Shown piece after piece: positions 3,536-36,889 of a stretch of DNA of 64,000 nucleotides; within the stretch, counting starts at the first letter, position 1, and each line of letters opens with the position of its first letter. The stretch is from Pseudovirgaria hyperparasitica (taxonomy: Eukaryota): NCBI GenBank assembly GCA_010093815.1, contig ML996594.1, one strand, 5' to 3'. The position numbers were made by a program, and so were the translations under genes. Below the pieces are notes generated by a model, which saw only the letters and a program-made list of their open reading frames with translations, was not told the origin of the DNA and made no database searches.

Positions 3536-3599
3536 TTAATTTAACTTTAATTATCTCTTTCTATACGTGGCCTTATAGTATAAGATAGTCTTAACCCGT

Positions 3600-8640: not shown

Positions 8641-8699
8641 CTCTTATTAGGTACTAGGGAATATATAGGCCTATATATTCGTTCCTCTAAGACGCGACT

Positions 8700-10107
8700 A
8701 TCCTTATATAGTAGCGGCCTTAGTAATTCCTCGGGGCCGTCCTATTATTAGCTTTCTTAGGACGGTTTACCATTCCTAACCGCTTCCTTATAAGGAGGTA
8801 GTCTATAATAATAGTATTATAGTAAAGAGAGGAACGGTAGTAGGTCGCATCGTTTATAGCTACCTTACTCTCTTTATCCGGATTAAGTGGATGTATTCGG
8901 TAACCTATTTACGTTTCGCGCACGTAGCCGACCACGACGGGTACTTACCGTCGTAGTTAGAGCACTTCGCCGTGTCTCTATCCCTCTAGCCCTCTTCTCG
9001 TGTCCCGTAGGGGCACTCCTAGGTACTATATTCTTATTAATACCACCTATACCTAGTCTTTTAGGAGCACCGCTATGCTATATACCCGTATCCCTAATAG
9101 TTAAAGCACTATATTATCGCCTATACTCTATCCTATAGTTCCGCTATAAGAAGCTCCCCTTCCGCTAGAAATCCCTCTTACGTAATTTAATACGCGAGGG
9201 CGGGGTCCTTAAGCTCTATTATTATAGTAGAGTATACCTTCGATCTGGTTTTAATCCCTTATATATTCTTCTACTATACTCTTACGATCTTAATTCCTAG
9301 GTATTTTTACTTATTTAACTATTCTATCCGCGTAATATCCTCTTCTCTAATAACCTATCCGCTTATAGATATAAAGTATACCTATATCGGGTATATGGCC
9401 GCCCTAATAGAGGCGCCTAGAAAGATACTACTAATCGCGTTCGGATCACGCGAGATAGTCTACTACACGATATTCGTTATTATAGTAAGTACTACTTCTT
9501 CTAGCGTAAGTTTAGCGACGACGACGTTTAACTATATTCCCTTTTATTTATTAATCTTACTTACTATATCCTTTAGAGATACTTACTAGACCTATACTAG
9601 GGTGTCCTTATCCTAGATTACGACGCGTATACTATATACCGCGTCGCCGGTCCGGGGGGCCCGTAGTATAGTCTCCGGTATTACTACTATTTATACCTAT
9701 ATACTAGGGCGCTTACCTTAAGTAAGTTCCTCCTAGATTCTACGTAGGCTGGCCTCTATTTAGTCGAGCCTACCCTCTAGTCCTCCTAGTTATATCTTCT
9801 TCTCCTCCTCCGTAATTCCCTTTAGATTCTAGATAAGGTCCTAGAATATATATAGGAGGGTCTTCTAGCCCTCTCCGGCTTCCTTCTCTATACGTACTAC
9901 CTAGTAGTTAATATAATCTAGGAGGGTTTCCCCTCTCGGGGTCCCCTTTATTCCGTCTATCTATAGCGGCGTGCGCCTTTAGGTATGTTCTACGTTTTAG
10001 ATAGGTATATAGTTACCCTTAGTAATATCGCTATATAGCCTTTTCTATCGTACTAGTGGGGGTATATCCGGTATATACCGGGGTATATCGGTGCCTAAGG
10101 CCGCCAT
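8700..10107 (-). pseudogene. LINE copy 1 ORF1 (gag-like, zinc knuckles), RIP-disrupted
   Basis: ATGGCGGCC start retained in copies 1, 2 and 3; QCFNCQGYGH-like knuckle near 9080-9115; stop position approximate. Confidence 0.75.
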
Positions 10108-10399
10108 ATTTATTAGTTAAGGGCTACCCTTAACTAATAAAAGGGGGTCGGCGTATTAGTATTCTAGTAGCGTGGTCCGTGCCTCTATCTCCGTAAGGAT
10201 TTTAAGAGGGTATATATATATCTTTACACGGTAATAACGTCTTGGTTTCGACGCTATACGTACGTGCGTATAGTAGTAGTTAGTATACTCGGTGTACTCT
10301 ATCGATTAAGGTATATATCTCGCTGTATTACCCTAAATGGACCAAGTTAGCCTCTTAGGGATATAAAAGAAGTTTTACGTATTGTTAATAGAAAGTATA

Positions 10400-13300
10400 T
10401 AGATACCTTAGTAGATATAGGGTGTAAGTATTTCGCGGTGGTTAGCCCGGCCCTTACGGCGGACGTAGCTAAGTCGTGTATCTTGGTCCTATGTCGTTAA
10501 GTAGCTCTCGCCACTAATAGAGTATTAGAACTAGAGATTACGGAAGTCATTACTATCTAGTATAATATTACGGGGTAGCGATAACGCCTTACCGCCTATA
10601 TAGTACCCGGGCTAGACCGGGATTTTATCCTTAGGAGTCTATAGCTCTACTAGGCCGGCGCCGTTATCGATATACGCGTAGACGAAATTACGCTTTACCG
10701 CGCCCACGGCCTTATAGCCCGGGATATTAATACCTATAGGCGCCTAATAAGTATCTAGGTCCTTACTAAGAAGGGCCGTATTCTTAGGGGTCTAGAGATA
10801 GCTTACCGCCGTAGGCGAGTAGTCGCTACTAGTATCCGCGACATTACCCGCCTCCTATAACTTATACTCCCCTAGTTACCTCCGGTATCTAACTAGGACG
10901 CGACTAAGCTTATAGAGAATAGGCGCCCGCTCCCGTTAACGCTATACGCCTACCGCGATCTCTTTAATAAGGAAAAGGTATCGACGCTATCTCCCTATAG
11001 AGAGAATACCGACTACTATATCCGCATTAAGTCTATACTAGCGGGAACCCCTATAAAGCTCCCCTAGGGACCTCTCTATACTATATCTCGGGAATAACTT
11101 ATAGAGCTCCGCCGCTAGCTTACGGATCTTATAGATAAGGGATAGATACGGGCTAGCTCCTTAGCGGCTAGGGCGCTAGTACTTCTTATCTCTAAGCCGG
11201 GAGAGAAGTAGCGGCTATATATTAACTATAGGGCCCTTAATAGTATTACTAAATAGGACTAATACCTACTACTACTTATATATAAGACCCTATATACTAT
11301 TAGTAATACGTCGTGGTTTAGTAAGGTAGATATCTAGGCGGTATTCTATAAACTACGGGTCGCCGCTAGGGACAAATATAAGACGGCCTTCCGTACCCGG
11401 TTCGGCCTCTTTAAATAGATAGTTCTCCCTTTCGGTCTCTCTAGCGCCCCTATCTCCTTCTAGTACTATATTAATAGAGTACTAAGCGGGGTCCTCGGGG
11501 TTACCTATATAGTATATCTTAATAATATCCTTATATATACCCCGGGTACGTTAGAAGACTACTAGGCTACCGTAAAAACTATTCTATCTCTTCTTATAAA
11601 GGCGGACCTTTACTATAACCTTACTAAATACCGTTTCGCTACTAAGGAGGTCCGGTACCTAGATTATATTATTACCGCTAGGGAGTTAATCCGCCCTAAC
11701 CTAGAGAAGATTACCGCTATCTAGAACTAGAAGCCCCTAACTACGGTCCGGGGCGTCTAGCGGTTCGTTAGATTCGTAAACTTCTACTATAACTTTCTCC
11801 CTAACTTCTCTACTATAGCGGCCCTACTCTATACCCTTACTAAGGCCGGGACGGCCTTCTACTAGGGCCTGGCTAAGGACCGCGCGTTTAATACGCTAAA
11901 GAACGCTTTTATTACCGGGCTAATCCTCTAGTCCTAGAACGAGATACGCGATATAATAGTCGAGGTAGATTACTCTAGACACGCAACGGGTAGATATCTA
12001 TCCTAAAAGGTTTAGGGTATTTAGTATCTAGTAGCCTACTATTCCGTAGCCCTTACGGCCGCTTAGCGGAACTATACGATCCACGATAAGGAGCTCCTTA
12101 TAGTAGTTTAGTATCTCTAGGCGTGGGAACCTAAGCTCCGAAGCGTCTACCGCCTCTTTATAGTCTATATAGACTATAAAAATCTCGAGTACTTTACTAA
12201 GTCTTATCTTCTTATTCTATAGTAGTAACGATAGTCTAACTAGCTTATACTATTTAACTACGACCTCGTATACTAGCTAGAATTCTAGGCGGCCCGCCCG
12301 GATACCCTAAGCCACCGTAACTAGAACTTATCTAAAAAGTCCCTTCTAAGGGGACGGCTTATAACCCTACGGGCCATTAGAATAGCACTAGTAAGTACCC
12401 GCTCTAGGGAGTTCTATCTCCCCTAGGGACGAAGTATCTTTACCGACCCCTATCTCTAGGAGCTCTAGAACTAGGCTATTTAGTTAGTCCCGGTATACTA
12501 GGTCCGCTATAGGGCCGTAGTAGACGGGGTACGCCTCTTTCTACTAGAGGCGCTTACTACTAAATAGATTATAGACTATATTATATTAGTATATAGAATA
12601 CTAATATAGCGGGGGGTCATTTAGGTGCCCGAGTAGGAACCCCTTACTATAACTATTATCTAGAAGTCCTATACCTCCCCCCTCGCGGGCTATCCTAGTA
12701 AGAATAAGACTTATATAGCTATTTGGCGGGAGTACTACTAGAAGCGGATATAGACTAATATCCGGTAGTTCGTGCGAAACTATAACTACTATAGAGCCTA
12801 TATAAACTAATATAAGGCCCCTAGCCTTCTCTAGCCTCTTCCGACGCTAGACCGGTTCTAGTCCTAAATTTCTATGGATTTTATAACTAACCTCCCCTAA
12901 TTAGATCTATCCCGGCCCCGATATCTTCTTATTATTATAGACCGACTCTTAAAGTTTATTTAGCTAGAGGCGATAACCTCTATAGTAGCTAAGGACTACG
13001 CTACGTGGTTCCGTAACACGTAGTAGCGTTTCTAGGGGTTCCCCTAGTTAATAATCACGGATCGGAGCTTAGACTAGCTTAGGTAGTTCTAGATAACCCT
13101 CTACTCTATAATAGGTATATACTAGAATCTCTCTATGGTCTACCACCCGTAGATAGACGGCGGTACTAAGTATACGAACTAGGAGGTATAGACCGTACTA
13201 CACGTTATAGTAACTTTTAAGTAAACTAACTAGCCGGAATATCTCCTAGTATATTAGCTCGCCCTTAATAACTATACCTTATTAGTAACTAGTATAGCGC

Positions 13301-13958
13301 TAAACTTACTTCTAAACGGATACTACGTTAAACTATTACCACGGTAGCTACTCTCTAACGCCTCTACGACCTTAGCGAAAGGTTAGACTATGAATTTTCT
13401 TAAACACCTTTAGGACGGTACTACCTTAGCTTAAGCGGCTATTACCTAGGCCGAGTAGCGTTTCTAAGACTTGGTAAACCGGTTACGACGCCCGGCTAAG
13501 CGTTTTAAGATTAGTAATATAGTATAGTTCTCTCTCCGGAACGTAAAGACTAACTACCCGAGCCGGAAGCTTAACTAGCTATAGATAAAATACCGGGTTA
13601 TAGTCTAATCTACCCTCTTAATAGTAACCCTTAACCTCCCCGGAGACCTTTATAAAACGGTCTATATAAGTCTTATTAAGCGCGCCGTAGAGGACCCCCT
13701 ACCTAGCTAAGAGTAGCTTAATACCCGCCTAGACCCGGCGCTTAAGCTTAACGAAGTAGACGAGGACGTCGCGGAGTATAAGATTAAGAACATTCTATAT
13801 ATAAAAAATACACGGGGGTAGAATAAGCGATAGGTGCTTATAAAGTAGAAAGGTTAGTTATAACTAATATAGGTTCTACTTAAGGACGTAGAAGATACCG
13901 AGGCGCTAGACCGGTTTAAGTCTAGATATAGCGACGCTCGATTATATAACGGCCTATA
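10400..13958 (+). pseudogene. pol: pol relic of Gypsy A (PR, RT, RNase H, integrase, chromodomain)
   Basis: De-RIP ALVDTGC at 10405-10425; YLDD (tat ctt aat aat) at 11515-11526; NYTIHDKELL at ~12070-12100; ISMDF at ~12870; chromodomain EYEIE..VKWKG at ~13775-13855. Confidence 0.85.
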
Positions 13959-15836
13959 ACTCTAACGTATCCCTAAGTAGTAATATTACTCTACTATTAT
14001 AGGTCTACAGCGGCCCTAATAACCTAATATAAGAGTAGAGATTTTAGAAAAGAGAGAAATAAACGCTAAACGCTAGTACCTAGTATAACCTAATAATAAA
14101 CTAATACCCGCCTTAAGATATAAAAAGGTTATTTACCTAGCCCTACCCTAGGTTTACACGGCGCTAGGGCCGGTACTATCCTTATCCGTAAGTCTTAATA
14201 TAAGGTTAGTTACCTAGTCCTCCCCTAGGCCGTCTCCTAATAGCGGTAGTAGCTATTAATCTAGGCGGGTAGTAAGGGCGAGTTATACTTATCTACGGGA
14301 GGGTTATAGCGGGAGTAGGCCGGCGACTAATAGCGGTATAACGCTTAACGATCCTCGTAGGAATAGTACTAACGGCTACCCGAGCGATAGCGACAATTAT
14401 ATAATTAGTTATAATAGTTATATAACCAGTTATAACGGTGGGGAGACCAATTACAGTAGGTAGAGGACCGGCTATAACGCTCGTAGAACCGGGAGTAGTT
14501 ATAGTAGCGAGGAGGGGTCCGGAGCTAATAATAAGATAGTAAGAACTTATAAGGAGGGGCGGCAATAGAGAGCTAGGGGGGCCTAATAGAGCGATAGCGA
14601 GAGCTCCGAGTCGGTAACTCCCTATAGCCTATAGACCGGGGTCGGCGCGAGCGGCTACTACCTAATAAGGGCTCCTTATCCTCTATAACTATCTAAGTAA
14701 TAAGGCGGTGAGATAGTAGCTCTACTAGGCGGGCTAACCCGGACGCGACTTACTATATAGTGCCCTACGTCACGCGTTAGAATAGGTATTTAGGCTTATA
14801 AAGCTTATATACCTATAAGGTACTAACACTAGTGCGTAGCTTACCTATCTAGGCCTTATTATAGGATATATACTAATTTATCTAGTAAATCACGCTACTA
14901 ATCTAGCTATGGTTACTACTACCGTAATACGGCGGCTTAAACGACGTTACGGCGCTATAATAAGGCGTTATAGGAGCCTAACTAATGATACTAGTATTAT
15001 ATCGCATAATATAGATAATCTCTAAGTTAGACTTATAGTCCTTATATAGGTAGTAGAACTTAGAGTTTATACGCGGCTACTTACCGGATAAAGGCTTTAT
15101 TAGGTCTAGGCCGCGACTATCACGGTCCGTTATATAGCTAAAGTTATTATTAACTAACTCGTGTATAAACTTTTTAAGACGACTCTACGCCTTACGTAAG
15201 GCCGGGTACGTGGCGAGCTCCTTAGTATTCTATAAGTAGATCCCCTTTAACGTATAGTACTTTATATAGTTAGTACCGCGGCTAGACTTATAGCTACGCT
15301 CTAAGATTAGTAGACGCCGCCACGGCGTAGAGACGGTATATACCTAAGCACCCTAGTTTTCTCTAGAGCCTTTATATATATACGATATACGAAGTACACG
15401 GACTTAGTACGCTTATCTTCTAACGAGTTACCCTCTATAATATATAGCCCTATATAGTAAATAGGCTTAGTCTATCGGGGTATAGTAGAAGGAATAGTCT
15501 ATCTAGTTAGCATAAGGAACGGCGTAGGGATAGGACCCACTCACGGTACGATCGGCTAGTTCCTAGCGCCTAGGCGCGCGACAATCATTAGGGTCTTAAC
15601 CTCTAGCACCTATAGCTACCACCAAGACGGCGCCGGCTTCTATAATAGAACTATTTAGGCCTAGAGCACTTATAATAATAGTATAGAAGCTGCGAGGTGG
15701 TATATAAGTTTACTAATATTATAGTAGCTACTACGCGGTATTAAGATAGTAGACATAAGGGTAGTTAAGGAAGAAGAAAGTCGCTAGGCATAGGACCTAT
15801 ATACTCGCGTTAGGGAAAATCGTATAGGCCGGGGTA

Positions 15837-16080
15837 GAGCCGGTCCTAAAATAGATAATAATAATAATAAACGCGGGTCGTGCGTAAGCTACTCTACTAC
15901 TACTATATAACCCCTAGCCTAGAGAAGAGCCGGTCTCGAGATAGATAATAATAATAATAAACGTAGATCGTACGCAAGCTACCCTACTACTACTACATGA
16001 CCCCTAGCCCGGAGAAGAGCCGGTCTTAAGATAGACGATAATAATAAAACAGGACGCGCGGTTCGTACGTAGGCTACCCT
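15837..16080 (+). repeat. ~3 tandem 90-bp repeats in the 3' region of Gypsy A
   Basis: GAGCCGGTC recurs at 15837, 15927 and 16017. Confidence 0.85.
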
Positions 16081-17341: not shown

Positions 17342-17371
17342 NNNNNNNNNNNNNNNNNNNNNNNNNNNNNN
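17342..17371. other. Assembly gap
   Basis: N run. Confidence 0.99.
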
Positions 17372-20142
17372 TCTTTAATCTTCTTAAAGGATATTCTTTT
17401 AACCTCTATTAATTTAATAGATTATAACTTAATATTATACTATTTCTATCTACTATAGACTATAATAGATAAATTAGTAGTAATAGTATATATATTAAGT
17501 AGTACAGCTAAACAGAAGAAGTATTTAATAAATTTTTAATAGTAGTTAGTAAAGCTAATAAAGATATATATATCTTAAACGGATTTTAGTTTAGACTAGT
17601 CTATAATAGTAGTAACTCTATCTCTCTCTATAGTTATACCTTAGTTAATAATAATAAAGCTAAGAAAGTTAATATAGTTCTAGTGGAACTTATATTTAGA
17701 TAGCTAAATATATAGCTTATACTTTTCTAGTCTATCTAGAACTATATATATATACTAGATTTACTTCTTCTTATTATCTAAGAAGATAAGAATATTATCT
17801 AGGTATATAATATATATTATATTAAGTAGATCTACTAGTATATTATAAATATATACTTAAAAGATACCTAGTATATTAGTTAGTCTAAAAGAAACTATAG
17901 TATACTTAAAGTATCTATAATAGATTCTAAAGGCTATTTTCTATTTATTATCCTCCTTAATATAAAGGCGATAGTAGATATTATATAGATTAAGCTTAGT
18001 AAAGATCTTTATACATTCTAGTCTATTAATAGACTTAGAGATAAGAGGTAGTAGATAATAATTCTTTTATATAATATTATTTAGACTATAGTAGTTAATA
18101 TATAGATAGAGGCTTCTATCCTTCTTCTTTATAAAGAGAATTAGAGCTCTAGCTAGAAATATATTAGATCTAATCTATTCTTATATAAGATTCTTTTTAA
18201 TATATTCTTAAAGAACTTATAATTTAGATTCTAAAAGAGGGTAGATAGATCTATATAGAGGCTACTAGCTATCTTTAAGATTAATAGTAAGGTTAGTAGA
18301 TTAGTATTAAGGTAATTTAGAGAAATTAATCGCTAATATAATATATTAGTATATTTTATACTAATATAGTAGGTTTTTATCTACTTTAATACTAAGCTTA
18401 CTATTTTAGATAAGTAAGAGTATATAGATAGTAGAAATTATCTTCTTATAATCTTTCTAGAATTATTTATTATTAATAAGCTATACTAGTTTCTATTAAG
18501 GTAGGTTTATATACTAGCTAGCTATTTTCTTAAGGAAGTCTAGTTTTAGGTTATATTTCTTAAGTTATAGTATATCTAGAATTATATTTAAGGGACTATC
18601 TACTATAATAAAGGTTAAGTAGTAGGGTTTCTATTTCTCTCTACTATCCTAGATACTATATTTAATAGTATAGGTACTATATAACTTAATAGAACTATTA
18701 ATACTATAGAATATAGTATCTTCTAGAGCTTAGATATTAGTATTAAGTTCTTATACTTATTAGATTAATATAATATTAGTAGCTAAACTATTATTAAGTA
18801 TTATAGTCTAATATTATCTAGAAGAATATTAATAGGTCTAGCGTATAGTTTAATATACTATTTAGCGGGTTATCTCTCTATTATAGTTATATCTATAAGT
18901 TATAAGGGTTTCTTATAGACTATTAGTTTTTTATATTTTATACTAGTTAGTTAGGTATAATATATTCTAGCTACTAGTACTTATAATATATAACTAATTA
19001 GTTAGTTATATTAGTACTTAGTAGTTTCTCTAAATAGTACTTAAGTACTATATAGTCTATTCTACTATAGATATAGTAAGTAACTTTAGATTATTTATAT
19101 AAGTCGATTCTTATATCTTAATATATTAATTAGTAGAGAGATCTATAATATAATTCTTATGGTTTTAAGTTTAACATATAGTAGTAGCCTTATAATATTC
19201 TATGAGATCTATTACTAAATCGGTTTTAGTTAGATAATTTTATATTAGATTAGATTATTAGAGATAGTTATATACTAGCGCGGTATTAGTTATTTATTAT
19301 ATACTAGTATTACTCTATAAGATTTATAAGAGCTTAGAGGTCTATAGAGATTATTATTATAAGATTAAGATAGTTCTTTATATTTAGAGTAAGGAACTAT
19401 TTAAAGTTATTATATTATTAAATTATATAATCTTCTTTAGCTTCTCTCTAGAGAGACTAAAGGTATTTAAGAAGTTATAATAGTAACTAATTATCTTATT
19501 ATTAAGTCTTAAAGATATAGCCCTAGATCTAGTTATATTATTTAGCTCTATTACTAAAATATTAGAGAAGGAATTTAGTAAATATATTCTAGTTATAGAT
19601 ATTCTTAGAGTATTTAATTTAGTATACTATCTAATATTCTAAAGGTATTAGATTAAGATAGTTCTAGATAAATCTAATTTTATTACTATTATTTATAAAT
19701 AGATAAAAGAATTAGCTATATTAATAGATCTATATATAGAAGCTCTTTCTACTTTTACTATTAACGTAAGATAGTTTCTTAGATTAGAGTAATTAAGATA
19801 GTAGTAGACTAGAATAGACCGTTTTAGTTAGTATAGATCTATATAAATATAGATTAGTTATTACTAGGACTAAAGTATATAATATAGCTTTAAGTCTTAT
19901 AGTATATTCTTAAGCTTTATCTAGTTTATATAGTTATTACTTAAGTTAAGTCTAATATTATCTCTCTTTATATAGTCTAGTATATATATTATTATAAGAT
20001 ATAGTTAATATTAGATAATTCTAATAGATTAACTTATTAATATTAATAGGGTCTAGCCTTATATTAGAGTTAGGTCTAGTATAGTTTAAACTAGACTAAG
20101 ATAGAGTATAATAGACTCTATCCTTTATTAGGAAAGATACGG

Positions 20143-20520
20143 TACTTCTAGTACTTCTAGGTCTTCCGGTACTCCTAAAGTTATCCTAAATAGGTCCCGG
20201 TACTTCTAGAGTTATTCTATTTCTCCTAGAGTTGTTCTAGTACTTCTTAAGTTATTCTAGTCCTTCTAGAGTTATTCTAGTTCTTATAGAGCCGTCCCGG
20301 GTCTTCTAGAATTATTCTATTAAATATTAAGAAAACGTTTAATCCCGTTATATACCGGCGTATATTAGAATATTCTATTATATACTAGTATATAATAGTA
20401 ATACTACTTTATATTATAACTATATTTTAAGTATCTAGAAATATTCTATAATATACTAGCGTATATTAGAATATTCCGTTATATACTAGTATATATAGTA
20501 AAGTCCTACTATATACTAGT
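20143..20520. repeat. Left subterminal repeat arrays of the TIR element
   Basis: ~20-bp units like CTTCTAGAGTTATTCTAG at 20143-20320, then longer units containing TTATATAC(C/T)(G/A)G(C/T)(G/A)TATA at 20343-20520. Confidence 0.75.
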
Positions 20521-20569
20521 ATAGAATAAATATCTTATTTCTCTTTATATATAGATATATATAGATATA

Positions 20570-23500
20570 TAATTATAAGTAAATAGCGGTTCGTATTTAT
20601 ACTACTATACTATCTAGTCTCTTAGAAGCTACTTAACTAACTACCTTACTTACTTCTATATCTCTATAGAATTACTAAAGTATACGCCTAATACTAGTAT
20701 ATTAGATATAGTTATTACTACTAACTATAGCTATATCTTCTTTTTCTAGGTCTAAGGCTTATTTTCTTATACTTTTAATTATCTAGTCTAACGTGGTAAG
20801 TCTACTCTTAACCCCTAAATAGTCTAAAACTAAAGTATATATATATACTATAGACTAATATTATCTATAGTAATAATATCTTATACTTATCTATAGCCAC
20901 GTCTCCTTATATAGATATTAGTCTACTAATATAATATAACTAGTAACTATTAGATCTTATCTCTTATAGACTTATAAAGCTAAGACTAGTAAAATATATA
21001 GAGAATCTAACTTATTTAATCTAAAATCTTAGTATACCTTATCTATACTAGACGTACTTAGACCGGCTAGTAAATATACTAATATTTTCGATTTTACGTA
21101 TGAACGTAGTACCTATATATATATTAGTAAATTATATTACTAGTAAGTACTAATATAAATACTTACTATATATAGGAATATTATAGTTACTAGTATAGTA
21201 GATATAATTACGATTTTCTCTAGTTAGTTAGTAAATGTTTAATATATATATTTAGTATTTTTATTATAAATCTTTTTATTAATAAGCTTATAGAGCTAGT
21301 TTACCTTTAAAGTAACTCCTTTTAAAGCTAGTAAGATTATATTCTTTTATATACTATTATCTAGCTAGGGGAGTAATTCGCGCATAGGATTAACAATTAC
21401 TCTATCTAATATACTATTATTATCTATTAACAGACGTATAAGCCTAATTTTAATATATTTCTTACTTATTCTTTTATTAGTAAGGTATATAAGTAGTATA
21501 TATATAGTAGCTAGCCTAGCCTTATAGTAGTACGTATTATACCTAAGCCCGTTTAATTTACTCTAGGCGATAGCTTATTTAAGAAGCCTTTAGCCTTTAT
21601 TCTTATATAACTATATAACCCGCTTCTCTATATCTATAGTAGTAATATATATAATATCTACTACTAGGGTTACTATTATAGATAGATAGTTCTTTCTATT
21701 AAACTACTTACTTAGTAGTCCCCTTTATAGAATAAATAGTAAATACTAATTAGCTACTATTCATAGTATATACTTACTATCTATAGTTTCTAATACTATA
21801 CTAACTATACCGGCTATTATCTCCGCCGGCTTATTTTTCATTTAAGAGAGAAGTTTATTTAACTATATTATAACTATCTTTCTTATAGATCTCTTCTATA
21901 TACTCTTAAATACTAATTTAGTATTATTATTATTAATATAGTTAGATAACTAATCTAGAATACCTATTTTAATAGCTAATAGAATATCTAATAGACTATT
22001 TAAGAGGGGCGTTATACTAATCTATATACTAAATATAAAGGGATTAAGTTGCGTATACCTATACTATTTTATTATAGGTTTTTTTAAGGTATAGAACTTA
22101 TCTACTATAAATATACTAATAAATACTATATTATAAGTTTAAATAATATTAGCGCTAAATTTTTTCGCCTTCTTCTCTTTTAGAACTATATATCTAGTAA
22201 AGTTTATAATATATTAGATCTCTATACTTTAGATAGTAGTATAGACTATATTATTCTTCGTATATTATAATAGAAATTTAATAGTAGCGGTCTTATTAAC
22301 GCGAATTAACTACTCCTTAGTAATATACTTCTTACTAGTCTTATATTTTATAGAATTACTAATATTATTATAGTATTTCTATTCGGGGTTAGGGTACCCC
22401 TTAGCTAGATAGTATATATCTATAGATAAGAGTTATCGGATATTAGAGGTATTAAGAAGGGTTTTTAAGTATATTAACTATACTACTATCTTTATTAGAT
22501 TCTATTTATTAATTTTATTAGCGAATATACTATCTATATTATAGTATATCTAGTTAAAGCGCTATAGCTAATATAATACTAGAAGGTTTCTTAGATAGTA
22601 TAGTATAAATAGTTCTTAGAGGCGGGGTACCTTACTAAATTTATTAGTCTAGCTATATAGATATTTAATCGGATATAGAGGTTATATTAGGTACTTTCTA
22701 TCTATATCTAGGTCTTAAGTTAGTAGTAGATACTTTTCTAGATATAGTTCTATATTATTATATAGAAAGTTCTAATAGAATATAAGGTAGATAAACGTTA
22801 TAAGTATAATAGTCTTCTCTAGCCTTAGACTATCTACTAAGATCTAGTAGTTCTATAGATCTATCTACTACTTAAATATAGTAACTACTATAAGTAATTA
22901 GCCGGTCTATAGTCTATATAATCTACTTATACTAAAGGCTAGATATAGAATAGATATATAGCTAAAGTCCTTTATTAGATTATCTAGTATAAGCCTAAAT
23001 ATACTTATAGTAAGTAACTATATCTCTTCCGTATAATAAGAGATAGCTTAGATTACTTTATTAGAGTTATTAATAATAAATACTCTATAGATATATTAGT
23101 ATAGTAGTATATATTTCTACTTACTACTTAGTATAACTTATACTTTCTAAAGTTTTATACTAAGGTTATTATCTACCGGAAGATTATTATCTATATCTAG
23201 TTTTACTTTATCTTTATTAGACTTATTATCTAGAGAATAGATAATAAAGATAATATTATCTACTAATATATTATCTAATATATCTAATATATTTCTACTA
23301 TATAAATCGTCTATTAACCTAATTAGATTCTAGTACTTAAGTATCCGCCGGTTAATATCTAGTAGTATACTATATTCTAGTTTTAAGTGTTTAGGAGAAT
23401 CTATAGAGTTTACTATATTATTTAAGAGTATTCTCTTTACTACTAGTAGCTATAGATAAGCTTTACTAGTATCTAGAGGTTATTATATAATTATCTAAGT

Positions 23501-24230
23501 TAGTAATTATAGCTATATCTATCTTTAATACTACTCTAATATTAGTATCTAGTACTAAGTATATATATATATCTAAGTATACTTATTATATTATCTTCTA
23601 TTTTAGTATCTTCTATATTCTCTTTCTCTTTATATTCTAATAGTAACTATAACTATATATCTATAGCTAGTATATTTATATATATATAAGCTTCGCTAGA
23701 TATAATAGTACTTATAGAGAGATTATCTAAGTTAGTAATTATAGCCGTATCTATCTTTAATACTACTCTAATGTTAGTATCTAGTACTAAGTATATATAT
23801 ATATCTAAGTAGTATATATATATATCTAAGTATACTTATTACGTTATCTTTTATTTTAGTATCTTCTATATTCTCTTTCTCTTTATATTCTAATAGTAAC
23901 TATAACTAGGTATCTATAGCTAGTATATCTATATCTAGTTTAGCCTCTATTATATCTATAGCTATAACTATTAGTACTAACTTACTATCTATAGCCGCGA
24001 TATACTAATTAAATTCTTTAGTAATAGTGTCCTTAACTATTCTAATAAGTATAGTAGTATCTATACTACTATTTTTAAGCTCTTATAATACTTTTCCGTG
24101 TACTATCTTAATAATAGTATCTCTATATATACTATAACTTATTTTAGATAGTTAGTATAGACCTTAGAGGTACTAGATATATAGTAGAAAGACGCTAATA
24201 CTTAAGGCCTCCGTACGTTATACGTGTATA
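20570..24230 (-). pseudogene. SNF2-family (SF2) helicase/ATPase relic
   Basis: One frame gives de-RIP ILADGPGLGKT (22811-22843), IVDEFH (DEFH 22091-22102), WISATP (22007-22024) and EKIVIMS (21200-21220). After a 54-nt GTAAGT..CTAAT..AG intron (21113-21166) come motif V EG.DLTVAS (~20935-20970) and motif VI Q..ARCHR.GQ (~20860-20895). Ends approximate. Confidence 0.8.
23490..23933. repeat. ~190-bp direct duplication (period ~232) in the 5' part of the SNF2 relic
   Basis: 23490-23680 is repeated at 23722-23933. Confidence 0.85.
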
Positions 24231-25459
24231 TTATAGTTAGCTATTCTATAGCTAGTAGTCGAGCTAGAATAGTCGTAACTCTTACTATACTTATATATTT
24301 CTATATATAACTTAGGTTATAGGTAATAAGATAGAGTTAGTAGTAATAAGAGTTAAAAACTATATTTAGGCGGTAGAGGTTAAGTTACCGCGTTTACTAA
24401 TTATAATATAATTTTATAAAGTATAGAGAAAGTAAAGTATATAAGTAAATATTTAATTATTAGTATAGATCTTATATAAATATAATCATAGTAATAATAT
24501 AGCTAGTAGAACCGGGTATATACTAATATAAAATAGATAGACACCGGCTTATACTAGTATATTAATGTCTTAATTAAATATACGTGCTATAGTTATATAG
24601 CTAGTAGAATTAGATATATACTAATATACTATAGGTAGAACCTATCTTATATTAGTATTATATTACCTTAGCTAAATACGCACGCTACTCTTACTATCCC
24701 TAGTATCCTTTTTAATCTTCTATTACTCTTTATAATTAAGATCTATATTATCTATAACTAAGGTACTTCTAAGACTTTTAAAGTTACTATCTTTAGAGCT
24801 TATAGATTAGTCTTATGGCTTTCTAGATACTAATAGTAGTATATATAGTATTACTAGAGGAAGGGTTAAGTCATTTAGATAATACTATCTACTATCTATA
24901 ATACTATCTCTATAGGTATCTCTACTATTATAGATAGTAGCTTTCTATTACTACTATTATACTAGTTATAGTAAGTATAGTATTAGAGATAGAGAGACGG
25001 ATTTATTTAAGTATAACCTATATATAGCCGTCTATACTATTATATATTAGTTACTAGTTTATATTTCGTTTTACTTTAGATATACTATCTATATTCTATC
25101 TAAGGTCGAGAAGTATTATACTATTACTATATTCTAGAACACGTTTAATTACTAACTATAGAAGCTATCTAATATCTATCTCTAGTTCTATTTTACTTAT
25201 TATATACTTAACTAGTAGTATAATAGAATATATAGTAGTATAGCTCTAGTTAAATACTCTTCTAATCTTTATTATATATTAGACTCTAATTTACTATATA
25301 AATACTACTAAATTAATATATAAAGCGTTACTATAATCTTTCTACTAGTTAGATATAGATACTAGTATTTTAAGGAATATATTATTATTAAATCTAATTA
25401 TAAATTTAATTTTTCTTATAGTATATATATTAGTAGGCTATAGAACTACTATAAGTATA

Positions 25460-25590
25460 GACTATAAGGTTATAGTATATAAGAGCTATAAGGTCGTAAT
25501 AGACAGGGGTTATAAGATTACGATAGATAGAGATTATAAGGTTATAATAGGCAGGGATTATAAGATTATAGAATATAGAGCTATAATTAC
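25460..25590. repeat. Degenerate ~24-bp minisatellite
   Basis: About 5 units containing TATAAG(G/A)T(T/C). Confidence 0.6.
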
Positions 25591-26976
25591 GTGCCTCTTC
25601 TTATACTTAGAGATAGTTTTTCTATAATATATGGTTTTCTATACTATAGTATGTACCTAGTTATAGATATAGTATAGTATCTTTATCTCTATATACTCTA
25701 CTACTCTTTTCTATACTACTAGAAATTTATCTACTATCTTATTAATAATCTTATATACTCTTTTTATACTAAGCTTATTCTTAGTTTAATATCTATAGTC
25801 TATAAGTAGAGTAGCTATATATACTTCTATATATAGCTACCTTATATACGCCTCTATAGCTTTACGCTTTACTTATGTATCTAGACTTAAGATATAAAGT
25901 AGTACTATAGTAATTACTATATTTAGACGGTTACTTTATTATAGAATTAGATTTAATATATTAATTATATATAGTTAATATACATAGTTAATATAGTGTT
26001 TATAATTTATAGACTAATTATATAGTATATATATAGTATATTATAGGCGTAAGAAAGATAGAGATATAGATCGGATAATAGAGATAGAAGCCGGAATAAT
26101 AAGGTATCTACTAGGTAAAACTTATTTATATTCTTATTATTTCTTTAATACGCGTTTATAACACGCACGTAACTTAGTATAGCGTGGTTAGACGTATAGT
26201 TATTTACTTTCTATTATCTAATACCCTTAATAGAATTAGATAGCTATGATTCTTATCTTATAATATTATATTATAGGTAACTATATCTAGAATAGTATAT
26301 AACTATATATATATAAGGTACCGCGTTAGTCTTATTCTATTTTATATTTATATACTTATCTCTAGATACTCTCTAAGTATTATATATCTATATTTTATTA
26401 TATTTAAGTATTATATCCTTCTATGCCTTTAAAGTATATAATATTTAGATTTACTATATTCTATATATATTATAGTTGAAGTCTAAAGGTAGAGGCTTTA
26501 ATTAGAGCGTATGTTTTTTTATATTTTCTCTTTAGATAGTAATATCTCCTAATATAAAGACTAGAAGTAGTTTTAAAAGTATAAAGGGGATAACTAAAGA
26601 AAGTCTATATTATTAGGCTAGGGCTTATAGTAGATATAGAATTATATATTTATTTCTTAGTTAGTAGATATTAGTTAATGTACCTAGTAGCGCTATATTA
26701 TCTAATAGTATATCTATACTAGAGTAGATATAATAGAAATACCCTTAATAGATCTCTAATAGAGCTAAACTATCTATCTAATAGAATATTATAACTATAT
26801 CTAAAATAGATATAGAGATATACTTACTAAGAAGCTATAACTAAGTAGCTCTAATACGTAAGTCTAATTATATACTATTACTAATTAACTTCTATATCTT
26901 TATATATTATAATACTACTATCTTAGTTAGTATTCTCGTAGTCTCTATCGTTCTAGCCGCTAGTAGTTACTTTATT

Positions 26977-27046
26977 AGTAGTATTAGCTCTAGTAGTATT
27001 AGTTCTAGTAGTATTAGCTCTAGTAGTATTAGCTCTAGTAGTATTA
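26977..27046 (+). repeat. 15-bp tandem repeat TAGTAGTATTAGCTC, ~5 units
   Basis: Directly visible; a de-RIP reading QQHQP/L is possible. Confidence 0.85.
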
Positions 27047-30000
27047 ACTAAATTATTACTATTTATACGTGCTAGTAATTTAGTATAACTAGAATAATAA
27101 CGCTAAGTATAACTAGTAGTCCTATAATTATAATAAAATATATCTATAAGCGTCTTGGGTTTAGAGTAAATATTAGCTTTATAGCTAATATTCTAATAGT
27201 TATTATATATAAGTATTAACCCTCTTAGATACTTAATAGACTTATATTCTTTAATATTATATTTATAGTAGACTAGCGGCTTATAGAGCTTAGTACTATT
27301 AGTAGTTTATTAATTACTTCGTTCTTCCCTCTCTCTAATACTAAGTATAGAGTAACTATATTAGAGATTAGATATATTAGAGAGTAGAGGGAGACTATCT
27401 AGATTAGGGGTCGTGTACGTATATATTATATAAATCTTAGAGTATCTATTCTTATCTTACTAAGTATACTATCTAGAACTTTCTACCTCTTAAGAGATAC
27501 GAAGTTAGTAATAATAACTATTATCTATTTAGTACGCGTAATAGTAATAATATTATAGTTTACTTCTAAGAGGAAGCCGAAGTAATTAGTTTAGACTAGG
27601 TTAATAAGAACTATATTATTATTATAACCCTAAGAACCATTCTATAAACGCTATTAGATAAGCTTCTATACCGACTTAGATAGAGTATTAAATGAAGCTT
27701 TATCCGCTATAGTAAGTATAGTTAGAAGTAAGTTTCTAACTATCCCTTTAAATAGATTATGTTAGATAGCGTATATAGAAATATAGAGTATATAATTAAG
27801 TATAATACTATAATAGAAGAGCTTAGTAATAATCTACTAAGTAAAACGTAATAAGTCTATATTATATATTAAGTTATTTACCGTATATATATAATCTCTA
27901 TTAATATTAGTATATATAATATATTAATAGCTACGGATTCTAAATATTTATTAAACGGTCTCTACGAGTAGTATATTAATATTATTTATTATATAGAGTA
28001 AGGTTATTAGCTTACCTAAGTAAGTAATTAGTAATATAATATTTATTATTCTAGAAACTAAGCGTTCTAACTTAGTAAGGTAAGTAGTTAGAAAACTATA
28101 TTATATCTAGCGCTTTATAAAGGAGATCCTCTAGTTCGCGGTCTATATATTAGTACTATTATACTAGTAGATATTAAGCTAGCGTAGATTACTAATATAA
28201 ATAAATATTAGTTACTATTCTATAGTAGTATAATTAATAATAATCCTAAGTATATTACTTTTAAGAATATATATAGTCTTCTCTATTATAACTAAAATTA
28301 GATATATATTATAGACTACCTTATTAATATTTATAATATATAGGGTCTCTATATAAATCTAGGCGTAGATAGTAACTAGGTTCTAGATAGCGAGGTATAG
28401 CTTATTTATTCTATTATACTTCTTCTTAGATATATCCTTATTATAAGTATAATATTTATAGATAGTATATAATAGCTAAGCTATTTCTTTCTTAAAATTC
28501 TTAGAGATCTATTTATATTAGTATTAAGATTTAATAAGTCTAATAACCTTAAGTATAATATAACTAGTATATAGTTTCTATAGATAAGTACGGGGATCCG
28601 TACTATATTCTAATAGTTATTTACTATAGTTAGCCTAGACTTATATAAGGATAGTACTATCTATTATATTATTCTAGGTTAGTCTAATAAGAGGGTCGCC
28701 GTAATAAGATAGTCTAGCTATAGTAAAGAAAACCTCTTAATTAATAGCTTTAGGGTATCTTTAAAGAATAACTAGTATCTTTAGAGACTTATAGTAAGTA
28801 AATATATTACTTATATATTTATATACTTTTTCTATAGTATTATTATAGGTTTTATTAGTTAGACTAATAATAATATATATATATATATTCTATATATTTA
28901 GGTGGAACCTAGTATAGAGAGGTGCGCTATTATATTACTAGATAGAATAACTATCTTAGTAGTATAAGTAATAATAGAAGTACTATTTATTTTATTAATT
29001 AGAAGTATAGCTAGTAGTAGATAAAGCTATAAATAGCTCTTTCTAGCTCCTCTATAGCCGTGAAGTAGAAACTAAGCCCTAAGTATATCTATCGTCTATA
29101 TATAGATATACTATTATTAGAGAGATAGTTCTAAATATATAATATTCTAGAGATTATAGAATCTTTTATAATCTTTAATATAGTAGTTATAGTCAATAGG
29201 TTAAAGATTTAGATAGTTATTACTAAGTATTAGATTCTATATAGAGGGTAGTAAAGGGGATAGAATACTAGAGTAGACTTTAGATAATATTAGAAGTATA
29301 TATATATTAGTAATAGGGCTAGTAATAGAACCTTCATCACTAATAACATCATAACTATATTCTATATTTATATCCTTATTATTATCTAGAGATATAGATA
29401 ATTTAGAAAGAGTAATAAGGGTATTCTAAGGCTCTATACTATAATCTAGAATCTTATTATTAGAGTTAGAGGACCTATATATTAGAGATATAGATACCGA
29501 GTCTATAATAATATTAAGGACTATTATATTAAACGTATTCTAAGCGGCGTAGTTATCTATACTACTATCTCTAGAAGCTTATATAGTATAATAGATTAGT
29601 TTCTAGTATATATTAATATGTTACTTAGTAAGCTTATTATAGATTTATATACTAACTAAAGCTAGAATATCTATAAACTCTATAAGTATAGTAAGAGATA
29701 ATCTAATTATACTTAAACTAGTATTACTAGTCCGAATAAAATATTTAGGACGAGCTTAAGTTATATTAGTAACTATATCTATTAATATAATTAGTATCTT
29801 AGATACTTTAGAAGAATATCTAATCTTATTAAGGACTTTTAGAGTAAGGCATTTAAATAGAAGAACGCCTAGGCAAAATTAAAGGACTTTAAAGTAGTAT
29901 ATATTATTATAATAATTCTTTAAATCTACTTTAAGATACCTATAACTATCTAGTTCTATATAATAGAATTCTTTTATATTAATAGAATAGATAATAGCTA

Positions 30001-31042
30001 AGAGCGCCTAAGTAATATCTAAGAGCTAGATATATCTAATAGTAATATCTTAGAATTAGAATAATAGAAGATCTATCTATTTATCTTATAAGGTACTTAT
30101 AGTAATATATATTAGATAGTAAAATTTCTTATTAAATAACTCGTGGTAGAGAATAGAGATCTAGGGCTAAGTGTTCGGTCTACTTATTATACTATATTAT
30201 ATATAGAGAGTAGTAACTCCTATATACTATAAATTAATTAGATTACTCTCTAGGTTAAGCTTATTATTAAAGCTAGTAAGATCTATAGAGTTATATAGTA
30301 GTAGTAAGATATAAACTATAGTATAAGTACCTAGATCTTTAAAGAATTACTTTACTTATTCGTGTATTATATTAGATCTAATATATAATAGAATAGTAAA
30401 ACCTATACTAAGAAGCTTACTAGCTATAAGTTTAATAATCTAAAAGTTATAAGGGTCTTTATAGAGGCCGGTATTAGTATATAGTATATTAGCTTTATCT
30501 ACTTCGCTTATAATAAGATTAGAAAGTTTAGAAAAATACTTAATAAAGTTATCTACTTACTTAATCTTAAAGATCTATACTATAGAGTAGTTAGATAATA
30601 GAAGAATATTAGTATAATTAAAGTAGAGTAAGCTTATTAAGGATACTAATTTTCCTTTATTAATCTATTAGAAGTAAGTATATAACTTAATCTAAGAGTA
30701 GTACTTGGAGAAATTAAGAAATCTATATATATAACTAATTAACTCTTTAAAGCCGTAACCTTTACTACGAGCCTTAAATACTACTAGCTTAAGCTTAGCT
30801 TAAGTTTTTACTTATTTCTACTTAAGTCTATCTATTTCTCTACTAATACTATAGATATTTCTAAAGATTAACTATAGATTACTCTATATAAGAGAGATCT
30901 AATAGATAGTATAAGTAGAAATAGGAGCCTTACTACTTTAGACCTTCTTAAGTTTATACTTATTATTAGAATAGTAGTTACTAGTAAGTATACTAAAGAC
31001 GAGTGGTTTATTATTAGTTAAGATAGTAGTTATATTATAAGC

Positions 31043-31410
31043 TTCGACTTAAGTATAAGGCTTAGCTTAAATATAAGACTTAGCTTAAATGTAAGACTCG
31101 GCTTAAATATAAGAATTAGCTTAAGTATAAGACTTAGCTTAAATATAAGGATTGGCTTAAGCGTAAGACTTAACTTAAATATAAGACTTAACTTAAATAT
31201 AAGACTCGACTTAAATATAAGAATCGGCTTAAGTATAAGACTCGACTTAAACGTAAGGCTTAACTTAAATATAAGGCTTGGCTTAAACGTAAGACTCGAC
31301 TTAAACATAAGACTCGACTTAAATATAAGACTTAGCTTAAATATAAGACTTAACTTAAATATAAGGCTCGACTTAAACGTAAGACTTAGCTTAAATATAA
31401 GGCTTAATTA
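31043..31410 (+). repeat. 18-bp tandem repeat, ~20 units
   Basis: Unit (G/A)CT(C/T)(G/A)(G/A)CTTAA(G/A)(C/T)(G/A)TAAG; G/C-favouring consensus is consistent with GCT CGG CTT GAG CGT GAG (ARLERE). Confidence 0.92.
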
Positions 31411-31903
31411 TATTAAGCGTAGACTAGTTCTAAATATTACTAAATATAATAAGTTCTTAATCTATATTATAAACTATAAATATAACCTTATTAACTATTA
31501 TATAGAATAGACCTTAAGAGTTAATAGACTTAAGTTTAATAGAGTATTTATATATAGTTATAATTAATATAGAATAAAGTATAGAAGATAAGATTTAGAT
31601 TTAAAAACTAAGATAAGTAGAGAAAAGATTTATAGAAGTTTTCTTTTATAATATAGAGATAACTAAAGGAAGCTAAGATTAACGTAGACTAAAGTAATAG
31701 TAGCTTAAGTAGTATATAAAGTAGGGTAGCATACTACTATTATATAAGTCTAGTAGCTTACTAACTAAGTATATAGTATATTATAGAAGGCTATTAAATC
31801 GGGGCTTAGATAAATATAGATATAAGTAAATAGTATTATATAAAAGTTTAGCCATCTAATATACTAATACTATAGATACTAAGTCTATCTTCTAAATTCT
31901 ATA

Positions 31904-32848
31904 ATAATAATAATAATAATATTAGTGTTTAACTAGGAAGAACTATATATATAGCCATATATATGCTCCACAGGCTTAGGCCTCCTCTAGTATTAGCTGC
32001 TATATATATAAGAAAACCTCCTGTGATTGGCTCCCTAACTAGACCCTGTTACTAACCTAACCTGGCCTAGTCTAAGTCCTCGAATCCCATTAGGTGATAA
32101 ACTTACTTCTTATCCTTATATTAGGCTTTTATTACTATATTAGTACCGGCTCTTAATAACGCCCTAACTAACTATAGTAGATATTACCTTTCTTGTGATT
32201 AGGTAGGTCGCTAGGCTAGGCCTAGTCTTTTATTTCTATATTACCGTGTTTTTTCCTATCTATAGGAATATAGCTTTACGCCGGGTAGTAGTTATTAATT
32301 AAGATAACTAATGCCGGAGGGGGTGTATATCTAATAGGTCCATACCTTAGTACTAACCCTAGCTAGGCCGAATTCGGAAATTATTCTTCGGGGCTATATA
32401 ATCGTCTATAGGTAGGCGGGATACTTAATTAGGTATTACTATCTATTTCGTGGTTACCGAGCCGGAGTAAGTGCGAGCTAAGCCGGATTAGGGTAGATAA
32501 GGCCCCGGTATATAGTGAAAATTCTATGATTCGAGCTAAGCTAGTTATGGGTCTAGCCGCTCTAGGCGTCGCTCTACCACTTAAGGTAGCTTAGTAGGTG
32601 GCTATATTAGGTAATTCTTATTATGTAATAACGGTATAGTCATTTTCATATTATCTAATAGTCGCTTAGAACTAAGTAGTTATATGACGGTAACCTTCAC
32701 GTCACGTGCTCGCTTAGCCCCGTATACTTTTTAATAGAGCGTGCGAAAACTAGTGTGTAAAAAGGTAGCTATTATAGGATTCGAACCCACGACGTTGGAT
32801 AATAAACGCTTCTAGTAATGTAGTATACTACTACTACGCCACCTGGCC
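31904..32848 (-). mobile_element. tRNA-derived SINE, copy 2, inside the TIR element
   Basis: Reverse complement of 1511-2450; 14-bp TSD TTCTAAATTCTATA (31890-31903, 32849-32862). Confidence 0.9.
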
Positions 32849-35360
32849 TTCTAAATTCTATAGTAACTATCTCTTCTAGATAGTAAGTTATTACTAGCTA
32901 TATCTTATCTATTCTATTTATAGTAGAGATACTATATATCCGTTAGTATACTAGTATATATATCTAACTATAGTCTAAATATAACTTACCTTATACTATA
33001 ATATATACTATTAAGCTAATATTATACTAACATTCATAGGTTCATATCTATAAACTCCTCTTCTATAATATTAAAACTAGTAATATTATCTAGTAATAGA
33101 ACTATATAAGAAGAAGGCGGACTTAGTATATCTAGTTATATATAGACTTCTACTATTACCTTAATAACTACTACGCTAGTAGATACTTCCTCCCCGGCTC
33201 TAAATAGTATATAATATTAGACTTTTATATATTCGCTCGAACTCTTAAGTATACTAGTATTATATATTAATTTATAAGGTAATTAGGTTATAATTACTAG
33301 TATATTAATATTAATAGATAGAGTAGACGGGATAGTAGCGCTTAACTCTTCTAATATAATATTAGCTAGCTAATAATATAATAGATAAATATACTAGTTA
33401 CGTTATTATTAACGTCTATTATTTAAGTAGATAAAGCGTTAACTATATCTATATTAAGTAGACTAGGGCGTATCTATATACTATTAATGAAAGACCTAAA
33501 TCTAGTAAGGTATCTACTATATATATAACTCTATATATAACTAATAACTAAAAACCTAAGATAAATAAATAGTATTAGGTCTACGGAAGAGCGATAGTAT
33601 TATACTAGTATATACTAGATATACTAGTATATATTAGTATACGCCGCTTAGTAGTTATAATATATTAATATATACTAATATCTATTAGTATATATATATC
33701 TTAAGCTTATCTACGCGCGCTAGATAGAGGAATTCTACTACTATACTTATAGTATAATATTTCTATATAGTTAGATTATAGTTAATATATTATAGTAGAC
33801 TTCTAAATATACTATTTATATCGCCCATGCGGAAAACCACCTAATCTAGTTCTAAGCCTAGTATCTATTTAATAGTCTACTATAATACCTAGTCTAAACT
33901 ATTCTTATAAAGAATTATATTACTTAACTTACTTAGTAGAATCGAGTATTCTAGATAGATATAACTATATCTATAACCGCCTATGTTACCTAGTATATCT
34001 ATAGATAAGCTAATAAATTCTAATAGTTTATTTATACTAAGACCTACTATATTATATATTTTTATACCCTTAATATTTAACGGTATCGTACTATTCTATA
34101 TAGCTATTATTAGTACTAGAGTAACCTAAGTATAATCACGGATAAGAACTATAGATATATATATATAATATAGTAGTACGGCTACCTTAGAAGATATAGA
34201 TACTAGTAGTCCGATAGTTAAATAACTAGGTTAGCTAGATATATTAGACGGGTTTATAGAGTATATATAATATTATAATAGCTCGTCTAGCCTAGGGCAT
34301 TATTTTAATATATATAATAGTATTTAGCTAACCGCCGCTAGTTATACATAAATACTAAGAATATAGTATTAAGTTAATATATAGTATCTACCTATAAAAT
34401 AGTATAACTACTATTAATAAATATATATTTATCCGCGACTATCTAGAGGTAATACTCTTATTTTATATAGTAGTCCTTTACTTTCTTACTATATAGATTT
34501 AGTAATAGACTAGTAAATTCCTCTTAAATTAACTCGTCTATATATATCTAAAGTTTCTATCTATTAGACGCTCTAAATATATAAAGTATATTAAGACTCG
34601 CTTCTACTCGGCTATTTATTTATAGCTAGCTAGATATAGCTATAGATAGATAGAATAGAGAATAGAGTATATTACTAGGGTAATAGAGAGATAATATATA
34701 TACTCTATATAATAGACGTAGATATAATATATATATTATAGCTATATTAACGCGAGTAGTCCGTATAGTTATTAGTAATAACTCGTTAATTTAATAGAGA
34801 TAGGGAAATATATAACTAGTATCTAATCCCGTACTAATATAGGGCACGTAAAATAACGACGTTAAATATATAATACTCTATATATAATATTAAGTATAAT
34901 AGATAATAGCTCTACTCTAGTAATACTATCTCTATATAATAAAAGAGTAGCGTAGTATATAGATATAATAGAATAGTAGACCGTCTTTATAACTATATAG
35001 ATCTACTACTAAAGAGAAATACTATAAGATCTAGTATATACTATTATAAATATACTATTATCTATTATATTTAGGTATACTAACTCGGCGTATACGAAAT
35101 ATAGATAACTACTAATCTATTATAGTTCGCTATTATTTAAAGTCTAATAAGTAGAACTAAGAAATAAATAGTAGAAATAGTTAGATATAAGAGTTTTTAG
35201 TAATTAGAGAATAGTCTAGATAGCTTAAGGGAAGGATAGAGGACCTCTATAAAGTATATACTTATATAATATTAATATATAAATATTTAAGAGAAGTATA
35301 AAATACTAACTATTATCTCTATAATAGATTACTATTAATTAGTACTATTATTAAGAAGAG

Positions 35361-35370
35361 NNNNNNNNNN
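35361..35370. other. Assembly gap
   Basis: 10 N. Confidence 0.99.
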
Positions 35371-36889
35371 TAATAATAAATAATTATAGTAGTAAACCCT
35401 TATATTAAACACGAATAATGTGATATATTAGTATAGTATATTTATCGATTATAAGAATATATATCTAGTTACTATAGTTTCTAATGGTCTATATAATAAT
35501 ATATATATTAATAATATAATAATATAAGTCTAACTATACTTATAAGACTAGAGAAAGAATAAAGAAAGAGAAGAAGAAATATTAGAAGGGGGAGATACTT
35601 AAGAAAGATATTTCCCTAGTAAGAGCGTTATATACCCGGTATATACTTATTTATACTTATTTATATAGACTTATTATATACCTAGTACTTATTTATTAAT
35701 AGACTCGTTATTTACCTAATACTTACTTAACTATAGACTTATTATATACCCGGTATCTAATAAGATATAAACGTAAATAACGAAAATATTAGAATTAGAT
35801 ATAAGCTAGGTCTAGTAGATCTAGAGATATAGTTTGGATTTTAGGGTATTAATATATATAATCTATCTATATTAGATTAATACTATCTATATCTAGTTCT
35901 ATCTATAAATAAGAATTATTTAAGTTCTATATACCCCTTTTAGAGATATAGAGTTTTTATACTAGCTAGTAATTATTAGGTAATAAGGAGGTGTATCTCT
36001 AGATACTCCTTAGCTAAAATTATAGATAGTTATTAAATATAAGCCTTTTATAGAACTAATTATAATAAACTATAATTATTTCTTAGAGATATCCTAGTAT
36101 AGAATATAACTATTAAGTACTACTATATATAAACTATAACTTCCGCTATATACTAGTATATACTAGTATACTATAGTAGACGATAATAGATAGTAAGAGA
36201 CTTATAATACGCGCCTATATTTTAACGCTATAGTTATGTTTCGTCTATTTATAGTCTAGAAGTCTAGGTTATATACCTTATTATAGATTCTCTAATTAGT
36301 ATATATATTTAACTAGAATAAACTATCTATAACTAACTAATATAATATAATCTATATAGAGTATAGAATATACTCTAGCTCGTAGACACGGAACCTATCT
36401 ATTATATAAGTCTTATTACTAGACCTTTAACCTACTATATATAATAGTATAAGGCTACTAATAGTATTAATATCATCTCTATCTAAGTTATTAAGTAGTT
36501 TAACTAATATACCTAGGAATCGTACTACTATACTACTAGTTATATTAATACTCTCTATATTATATACCTCTAGAAATATATAGACTTTACTAACCTACTT
36601 CCTATTAAGGTAGTTACTACCCTTATTAAACTTCTATACTATTATATAATTCTCTCTAGCCTTACTACTCTTTTATTAGTTATAGATATATCTTATCTAA
36701 ATTAGATTAAAGGCCTCTATAGATATATCTCTATCTAGTTATATTAGTATATATATAGTCTTATATATATAGATAGAAAGGACCTATGCCTATAAAGGGT
36801 CCTTTTTAATATATTTAATATTCGCTTCTTTTAATATATTATCTCTAATAAGCTAATTATAATAGTTATATATAAAGGGTATAACTATA

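Follow-up and report, generated by a model that had tools for sequence, protein, structure and literature searches.

The relic reading frame and its motifs

The stretch of DNA analysed here, referred to as the window, comprises 64,000 nucleotides of contig ML996594.1 of Pseudovirgaria hyperparasitica (GenBank assembly GCA_010093815.1). On its minus strand, at 20.7–23.4 kb, it carries the decayed reading frame of a SNF2-type ATPase, hereafter the relic. We consider it very probable that this segment is a dead copy of a SNF2-type ATPase gene, which was destroyed by repeat-induced point mutation (RIP), keeps all seven helicase motifs in their order within one frame and belongs to a multi-copy repeat family. 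Between 20570 and 24230 the observed/expected ratios of CpA and TpG are 0.04–0.05, the TpA/ApT ratio is 1.63 and the GC content is 24%. This depletion of CpA and TpG, together with the high TpA/ApT ratio and the low GC content, indicates saturated RIP.

The relic reading frame was delimited by its stop density, which gives an approximate extent of 20702–23400 (minus strand). The density is 0.06–0.08 over 21001–23400, compared with 0.115–0.185 in four off-phase frames, and climbs to 0.11 beyond 23400, so that the relic can be bounded at roughly 20.7–23.4 kb. Over 20570–24229 the same frame contains 95 in-frame stops in 1,220 codons.

A preliminary description of this DNA had singled out four codon strings in one minus-strand frame, which it read as SNF2 motifs after reversal of C>T and G>A changes. 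The four strings are in place: atc tta gta gat agt cta agg cta gag aag act at 22843–22811, gat aag ttc tat at 22102–22091, att agt ata acg ccc at 22021–22007, and gag aaa atc gta att from 21220. They share one frame, the offsets from 22843 (741, 822 and 1623 nt) being all multiples of 3, and each proposed repair requires T>C or A>G changes alone. The spacings originally given, 720, 84 and 807 nt, are near the start-to-start distances of 741, 81 and 801 nt that we measured, but they are not exact.

Aligned to the SNF2 hidden Markov model (HMM) described below, the minus strand displays motifs I, II, III, IV and V–VI in sequence, which agrees with the SNF2 motif order proposed earlier. Motif I, the Walker A motif (22790–22870; HMM nodes 65–92, 18.9–21.9 bits), is observed as ILVDSLRLEKT at 22843–22811, and all its differences from the (I/L)LAD..GLGKT type are products of C>T or G>A changes. 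A segment between motifs I and II (22115–22231; nodes 113–150, 18.2 bits) is followed by motif II, a DExH box and then ..K(N/K), observed as IFIVDKFYTLKK (22049–22120; nodes 166–189). Motif III reads ISITPLLNS..DIL (21965–22021; nodes 201–219, 15.0 bits from match emissions), and motifs II and III together align to nodes 166–230 with 19.6 bits. The motif IV region ends in LEKIVIIS (21200–21235; nodes 347–358), and motifs V and VI, in the helicase C-lobe, occupy 20777–21007 (nodes 405–460, 23.4 bits). In-frame stops sit on a conserved W column in the segment that separates motif I from motif II, and also on motif VI columns with a conserved Q, as predicted from the decay of CAA, CAG and TGG codons.

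RIP-aware scoring of the relic

To score the relic we used an HMM of 514 nodes, built from 77 complete open reading frames (ORFs) among 119 viral loci with a SNF2 Walker A motif. A Pfam check of eight of the 77 training ORFs found both SNF2-rel_dom (PF00176) and Helicase_C (PF00271) in all eight. The score of a codon is obtained by multiplying, for each ancestral amino acid, the HMM emission by the probability that RIP yields the observed codon, and adding up the products; the mutation rate is 0.97 at TpA and 0.30 elsewhere, with 5% noise. The six-frame local scan used a context-free variant of this model, with a single rate of 0.55.

The top local match of the entire window, over six frames, lies in the relic frame at 20995–20828 and corresponds to motifs V–VI (23.4 bits). 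Two further top local matches are found in the same frame and in the right order, 22120–21932 (motifs II–III, 19.6 bits) and 22870–22790 (motif I, 18.9 bits). Elsewhere, the second-best local match of the window, at 44201–45400 on the minus strand (21.8 bits), falls on the motif VI nodes; it has no collinear partners and reaches chain scores of 38.7–40.0 bits. RIPped DNA is attracted generally to the motif VI nodes of the HMM.

Collinear segments within one frame were joined into a chain score, which was calculated in 3.6-kb windows for a total of 306 window-frames. The two windows over the relic score 62.2 and 61.6 bits, compared with 40.1 bits for the best other window-frame and a median of 27.6 bits across all 306. 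The maxima of two null sets were 41.5 bits (300 order-3 Markov sequences trained on RIPped blocks) and 43.7 bits (300 codon shuffles of the relic), and Gumbel fits to these nulls give the relic chain P values of ~4e-5 and ~8e-5, respectively. A control HMM for DEAD-box helicases, built from 12 of 23 viral DEAD-box loci, scores the relic at 38.5 and 29.3 bits versus up to 40.0 bits elsewhere in the window, which is noise. This indicates that the signal is specific to SNF2, within a comparison that covers one other superfamily 2 family.

A putative 54-nt intron

A sequence of the form GTAAGT...TTACTAAT...TAG, at 21113–21166 on the minus strand, has the features of a phase-0 spliceosomal intron of 54 nt, located between the motif IV region and motifs V and VI, where the preliminary description had placed a canonical intron. 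Deletion of 18 codons from any start in 21163–21202 lifts the alignment of motifs IV–VI from 26.5 bits, which is also the median over all 18-codon deletion positions for the C-lobe, to 28.4–30.0 bits. Once the 54 nt are removed, the C-lobe alignment becomes contiguous over nodes 324–468, which include those of the motif IV region. The donor–branch–acceptor pattern is rare: the minus strand of the 11.8-kb block contains it just twice. The deletion test and the rarity of the pattern give the intron moderate support, short of proof, and the relic probably contains it.

Other copies of the relic

The copy number was estimated from unitigs of at least 80% likeness to the stretch, in two sequencing runs of one sample, of which 955 and 1,529 could be placed. 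The depth of exactly matching unitigs is 127–143, while the summed depth is 1,150–4,500 across the greater part of the SNF2 body and up to 18,000 over an internal tandem duplication of ~230 bp, at 23451–23937. This duplication lies upstream of the SNF2 core and has the deepest unitig coverage of the stretch; its units are 82.6% identical, or 89.7% in a purine/pyrimidine alphabet. The summed depth is thus ~10–130 times that of the exact unitigs, and we estimate a repeat family of roughly 10–50 copies.

The unitigs differ from the window copy overwhelmingly by A>G (74–76) and T>C (68–71), compared with 16–22 C>T and 15–19 G>A differences, which indicates that other copies retain G or C where the window copy has A or T. 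In addition, a loose end at 22813 appears by eye to be the same sequence with about one third of its positions shifted by transitions, so that less mutated copies exist.

Evidence weighing against the assignment

Several observations count against a SNF2-type gene copy. The raw translation was negative in every standard search: Pfam, in three frames, gave no families at E ≤ 1; the PDB, searched by phmmer, gave no matches at E ≤ 10; an exhaustive phmmer search against 1.84 billion representatives gave no matches; and a word-indexed search of 5.8 billion clustered proteins, at near and shorter lengths, gave none. The relic has thus never matched a curated model. The blank Pfam result on the raw translation reflects the mutation load, and is therefore no valid test of ancestry. 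The scorer is home-made, and its HMM derives from phage and giant-virus sequences picked by a motif I pattern. The Gumbel P values are just ~1e-4 to 1e-5, and become ~0.01–0.03 when corrected for the 306 window-frames, although the frame had been named beforehand. The glycine position of motif III reads ATA, for which the ancestor would be A, V, T, I or M, and reversal of RIP cannot give G. Finally, the summed unitig depth behind our estimate of the family size cannot be equated strictly with the number of copies.

With L079, the viral protein that lies nearest to the relic, we also looked for eukaryotic SNF2 relatives; the 120 matches listed all look phage- or bacterial-type, some of them with HARP domains, and do not help to assign a subfamily.

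Comparison with SNF2 ATPases and with the X3X3R8 repeat

The relic shares with the ATPases of the SNF2 family (PF00176 and PF00271) the order and spacing of motifs I–VI, including a LAD..GLGKT-type Walker A motif, a DExH..K(N) box, a TP..N motif III and a Q...R..R.GQ motif VI. It differs from them in being a dead gene, in the motif III glycine position that reversal of RIP does not restore, and in the missing match to a curated HMM.

The closest precedent is a RIP-degraded repeat with genes of this type, described in Stagonospora (Parastagonospora) nodorum. In the excerpted account of X3X3R8 (Hane & Oliver 2010, PMC3017866), the repeat contains tandem Rad5/SNF2-like helicases, a reversed Rad6-like E2 and other ORFs of no known function. 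Judged from that account, both are multi-copy, RIP-degraded repeats of filamentous ascomycetes with a SNF2-type helicase gene that is recognisable only when RIP is allowed for. They are set apart, by description, by the tandem Rad5-like helicases and the E2 of X3X3R8, in contrast to the single SNF2 relic found here, with no significant E2 and no RING finger.

It is possible, and we put it forward tentatively, that the relic represents a copy of an endogenous gene cluster which was amplified and spread through segmental duplication, in the manner of X3X3R8, and not a gene of a transposon. The precedent itself speaks for this, as the same account gives X3X3R8 nine copies with gene models, and so does a gene of full length with an intron, as expected of a host gene. 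An E2 companion was sought with an HMM built from 117 of 119 viral E2 loci. The best E2-like local match of the window (HPN...GEIC after reversal of RIP) is indeed in the adjacent repeat and on the opposite strand, at 19078–19158 (+), with a copy at 51927–51859 (−). However, this signal is within noise, with 18.4 bits versus 18.2 bits elsewhere for the local match, and chains of 25.9 and 26.5 bits versus a window maximum of 31.5 bits. Moreover, elsewhere the adjacent repeat is found with no SNF2 unit beside it. There is also no tandem pair, the relic being the single SNF2 chain outlier of the window, and no second SNF2 relic was found there. The segment between the two lobes shows no RING-finger signal (7.8–10.1 bits versus a window maximum of 15.8 bits), in a weak test that consisted of an alignment, mostly noise, to one RING-bearing giant-virus SNF2 sequence (L049). 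The relic is thus of the same kind as X3X3R8, but membership of the X3X3R8 family is unproven.

Boundaries of the block and proposed transposon ends

The block that bears the SNF2 relic begins at 20130, where the neighbouring repeat stops. This repeat, 17372–20129, is an inverted copy of 53690–50872 with 92.5% identity, and in self-BLAST the homology ends exactly at 20129. The segments 20130–31905 and 32850–36880 are unique in the window, also after collapse to the purine/pyrimidine alphabet, which RIP cannot change, and BLAST of the collapsed 20130–36880 sequence against the window revealed no hidden homology to Gypsy- or LINE-like elements.

Just inside the boundary, at 20172–20319 on the plus strand, there is a terminal array of ~20-bp direct repeats with the unit CTTCTAGAGTTATTCTA + 3 nt, which occurs only here in the window. 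It consists of six 20-bp units in the same orientation, out of ten window matches at ≤3 mismatches; in 100 shuffled controls the mean number of matches was 3.36, and ten was never reached. The array is followed, at 20340–20530, by a palindrome-rich stretch of the TATATACTAGTATATA type, which forms repeat pairs with 36127–36206 and holds the proposed left arms of a terminal inverted repeat (TIR).

The preliminary description had taken the relic as part of a TIR element. In that case, an autonomous TIR DNA transposon at ~20.36–36.2 kb would carry it, either as cargo or as a gene of its own, and the ATPase would help transposition or oppose silencing. We regard this as unlikely. The multi-copy status of the family is compatible with it, as is the absence, within the window, of another copy of the block 20130–31905 + 32850–36880 or of cryptic homology to other repeats. 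The array at the left end resembles subterminal repeats known from certain DNA transposons, and the read depth is higher there; no inverted copy of its unit exists anywhere in the window, so that it has no inverted partner. The ends themselves do not behave as a TIR. In a transition-tolerant local alignment, the left 600 bp against the reverse-complemented right 1 kb scores 100, which is below the median of 109.5 (90th percentile 130) of 54 random pairs of RIPped segments. The stretch at 20340–20530 forms five inverted pairs that are 70–79% complementary, and the pairing of 20359–20495 with 36127–36206, at 70–75%, is one of 66 such pairs in 22 kb. No target-site duplication is definable. Raw Pfam searches of six low-stop frames in 24.6–31.8 kb gave no transposase and nothing over the curated cut-offs, only artefacts of tandem repeats, and RIP would hide a transposase from such a search. 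Nor did the sequence searches with the raw translation, all of them empty, give an intact homologue in a transposon context. Neither a TIR-transposon architecture nor any role in transposition is supported.

Helicase-encoding DNA transposons, AcademH and KolobokH, have been reported in fungi as TIR elements with a superfamily 2 helicase gene (PMC10799480), which lends the transposon reading a precedent. In the excerpted text of that report their domains are DEAD and Helicase_C, and the relic, compared with them by description, differs in scoring at noise against the DEAD-box HMM and in its unsupported TIRs.

A new kind of fungal mobile element, with its own full-length, intron-bearing gene for a SNF2 ATPase of the chromatin-remodeller type, the 20-bp array in place of TIRs, and tens of copies before RIP, seems to us quite improbable. 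It is hardly credible that the motif matches arose by chance from permissive de-RIPping of AT-rich DNA: single motifs are weak, noise gives local matches of 18–22 bits (such as that of 21.8 bits at 44201–45400) and an unchecked estimate from base composition predicts numerous codon strings compatible with GLGKT in each window, but the segments are collinear in a single frame, their chain is 22 bits over any other of the 306 window-frames and ~18–20 bits over the 600 null sequences, and the signal is SNF2-specific when compared with DEAD-box.

Two further features of the block were observed. Stops are sparser in the minus-strand frame at 28802–30601 than anywhere else in the block (density 0.04–0.075). 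This segment gives no raw Pfam match and may be another gene relic. Within it, 29501–30250 is the best, although weak, match of the window to the RING-finger segment (15.8 bits). At 31036–31409 there is a tandem array with an 18-nt period, which translates to a six-residue repeat in several frames and produces spurious, sub-threshold Pfam matches to beta-barrel families.

The surrounding window

The window consists of a patchwork of fungal repeats, in which blocks of 20–25% GC alternate with blocks of ~40% GC. The latter are partly RIPped retroelements, whose reverse-transcriptase and integrase strings were recognised by visual inspection alone, with no Pfam confirmation. They include a LINE-like element on the minus strand, with three copies at 5796–10375, 37598–42177 and 56914–61380 (93% and 73% identical), and a Gypsy-like element on the plus strand at 10400–16000. 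A repeat of ~940 bp occurs three times, at 31906–32849, 1511–2454 and 54913–55856. Its copies have 94–95% DNA identity, which rises to 99.6–99.8% when C/T and G/A are collapsed, so that nearly all their divergence consists of transitions, that is, of RIP. No tandem telomere repeats were found in the window. Runs of N are present at 5121–5795, 17342–17371 and 35361–35370, and the first of these accounts for an apparent 14% GC bin and six-frame open ORFs at 5.0–5.9 kb.

Discussion

With its SNF2 identity, RIP signature and multi-copy status established, the gene copy at 20.7–23.4 kb allows a simple history to be proposed. The ancestral unit would have carried an intact and expressed SNF2 gene, whose product would be a two-lobed, DNA-dependent ATPase of the SNF2 type, and the family may have spread either as a mobile or as a segmentally duplicating unit. 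Its repetition in the genome, in roughly 10–50 diverged copies, exposed the gene to RIP. The window copy is among the more heavily mutated ones, and no protein is made from it now.

A gene that is invisible to every standard search can thus still be recovered from RIP-saturated DNA. In this case the recovery was achieved, with statistics, by modelling the C>T and G>A decay inside the profile alignment. The relic provides a second case, after X3X3R8, of a SNF2-type helicase gene that was amplified many-fold and then destroyed by RIP. This raises the question of whether such helicase units are mobile elements equipped with a remodeller of their own, or whether amplified host loci of this type arise repeatedly, and the copies in the same genome that carry the fewest mutations could provide the answer.

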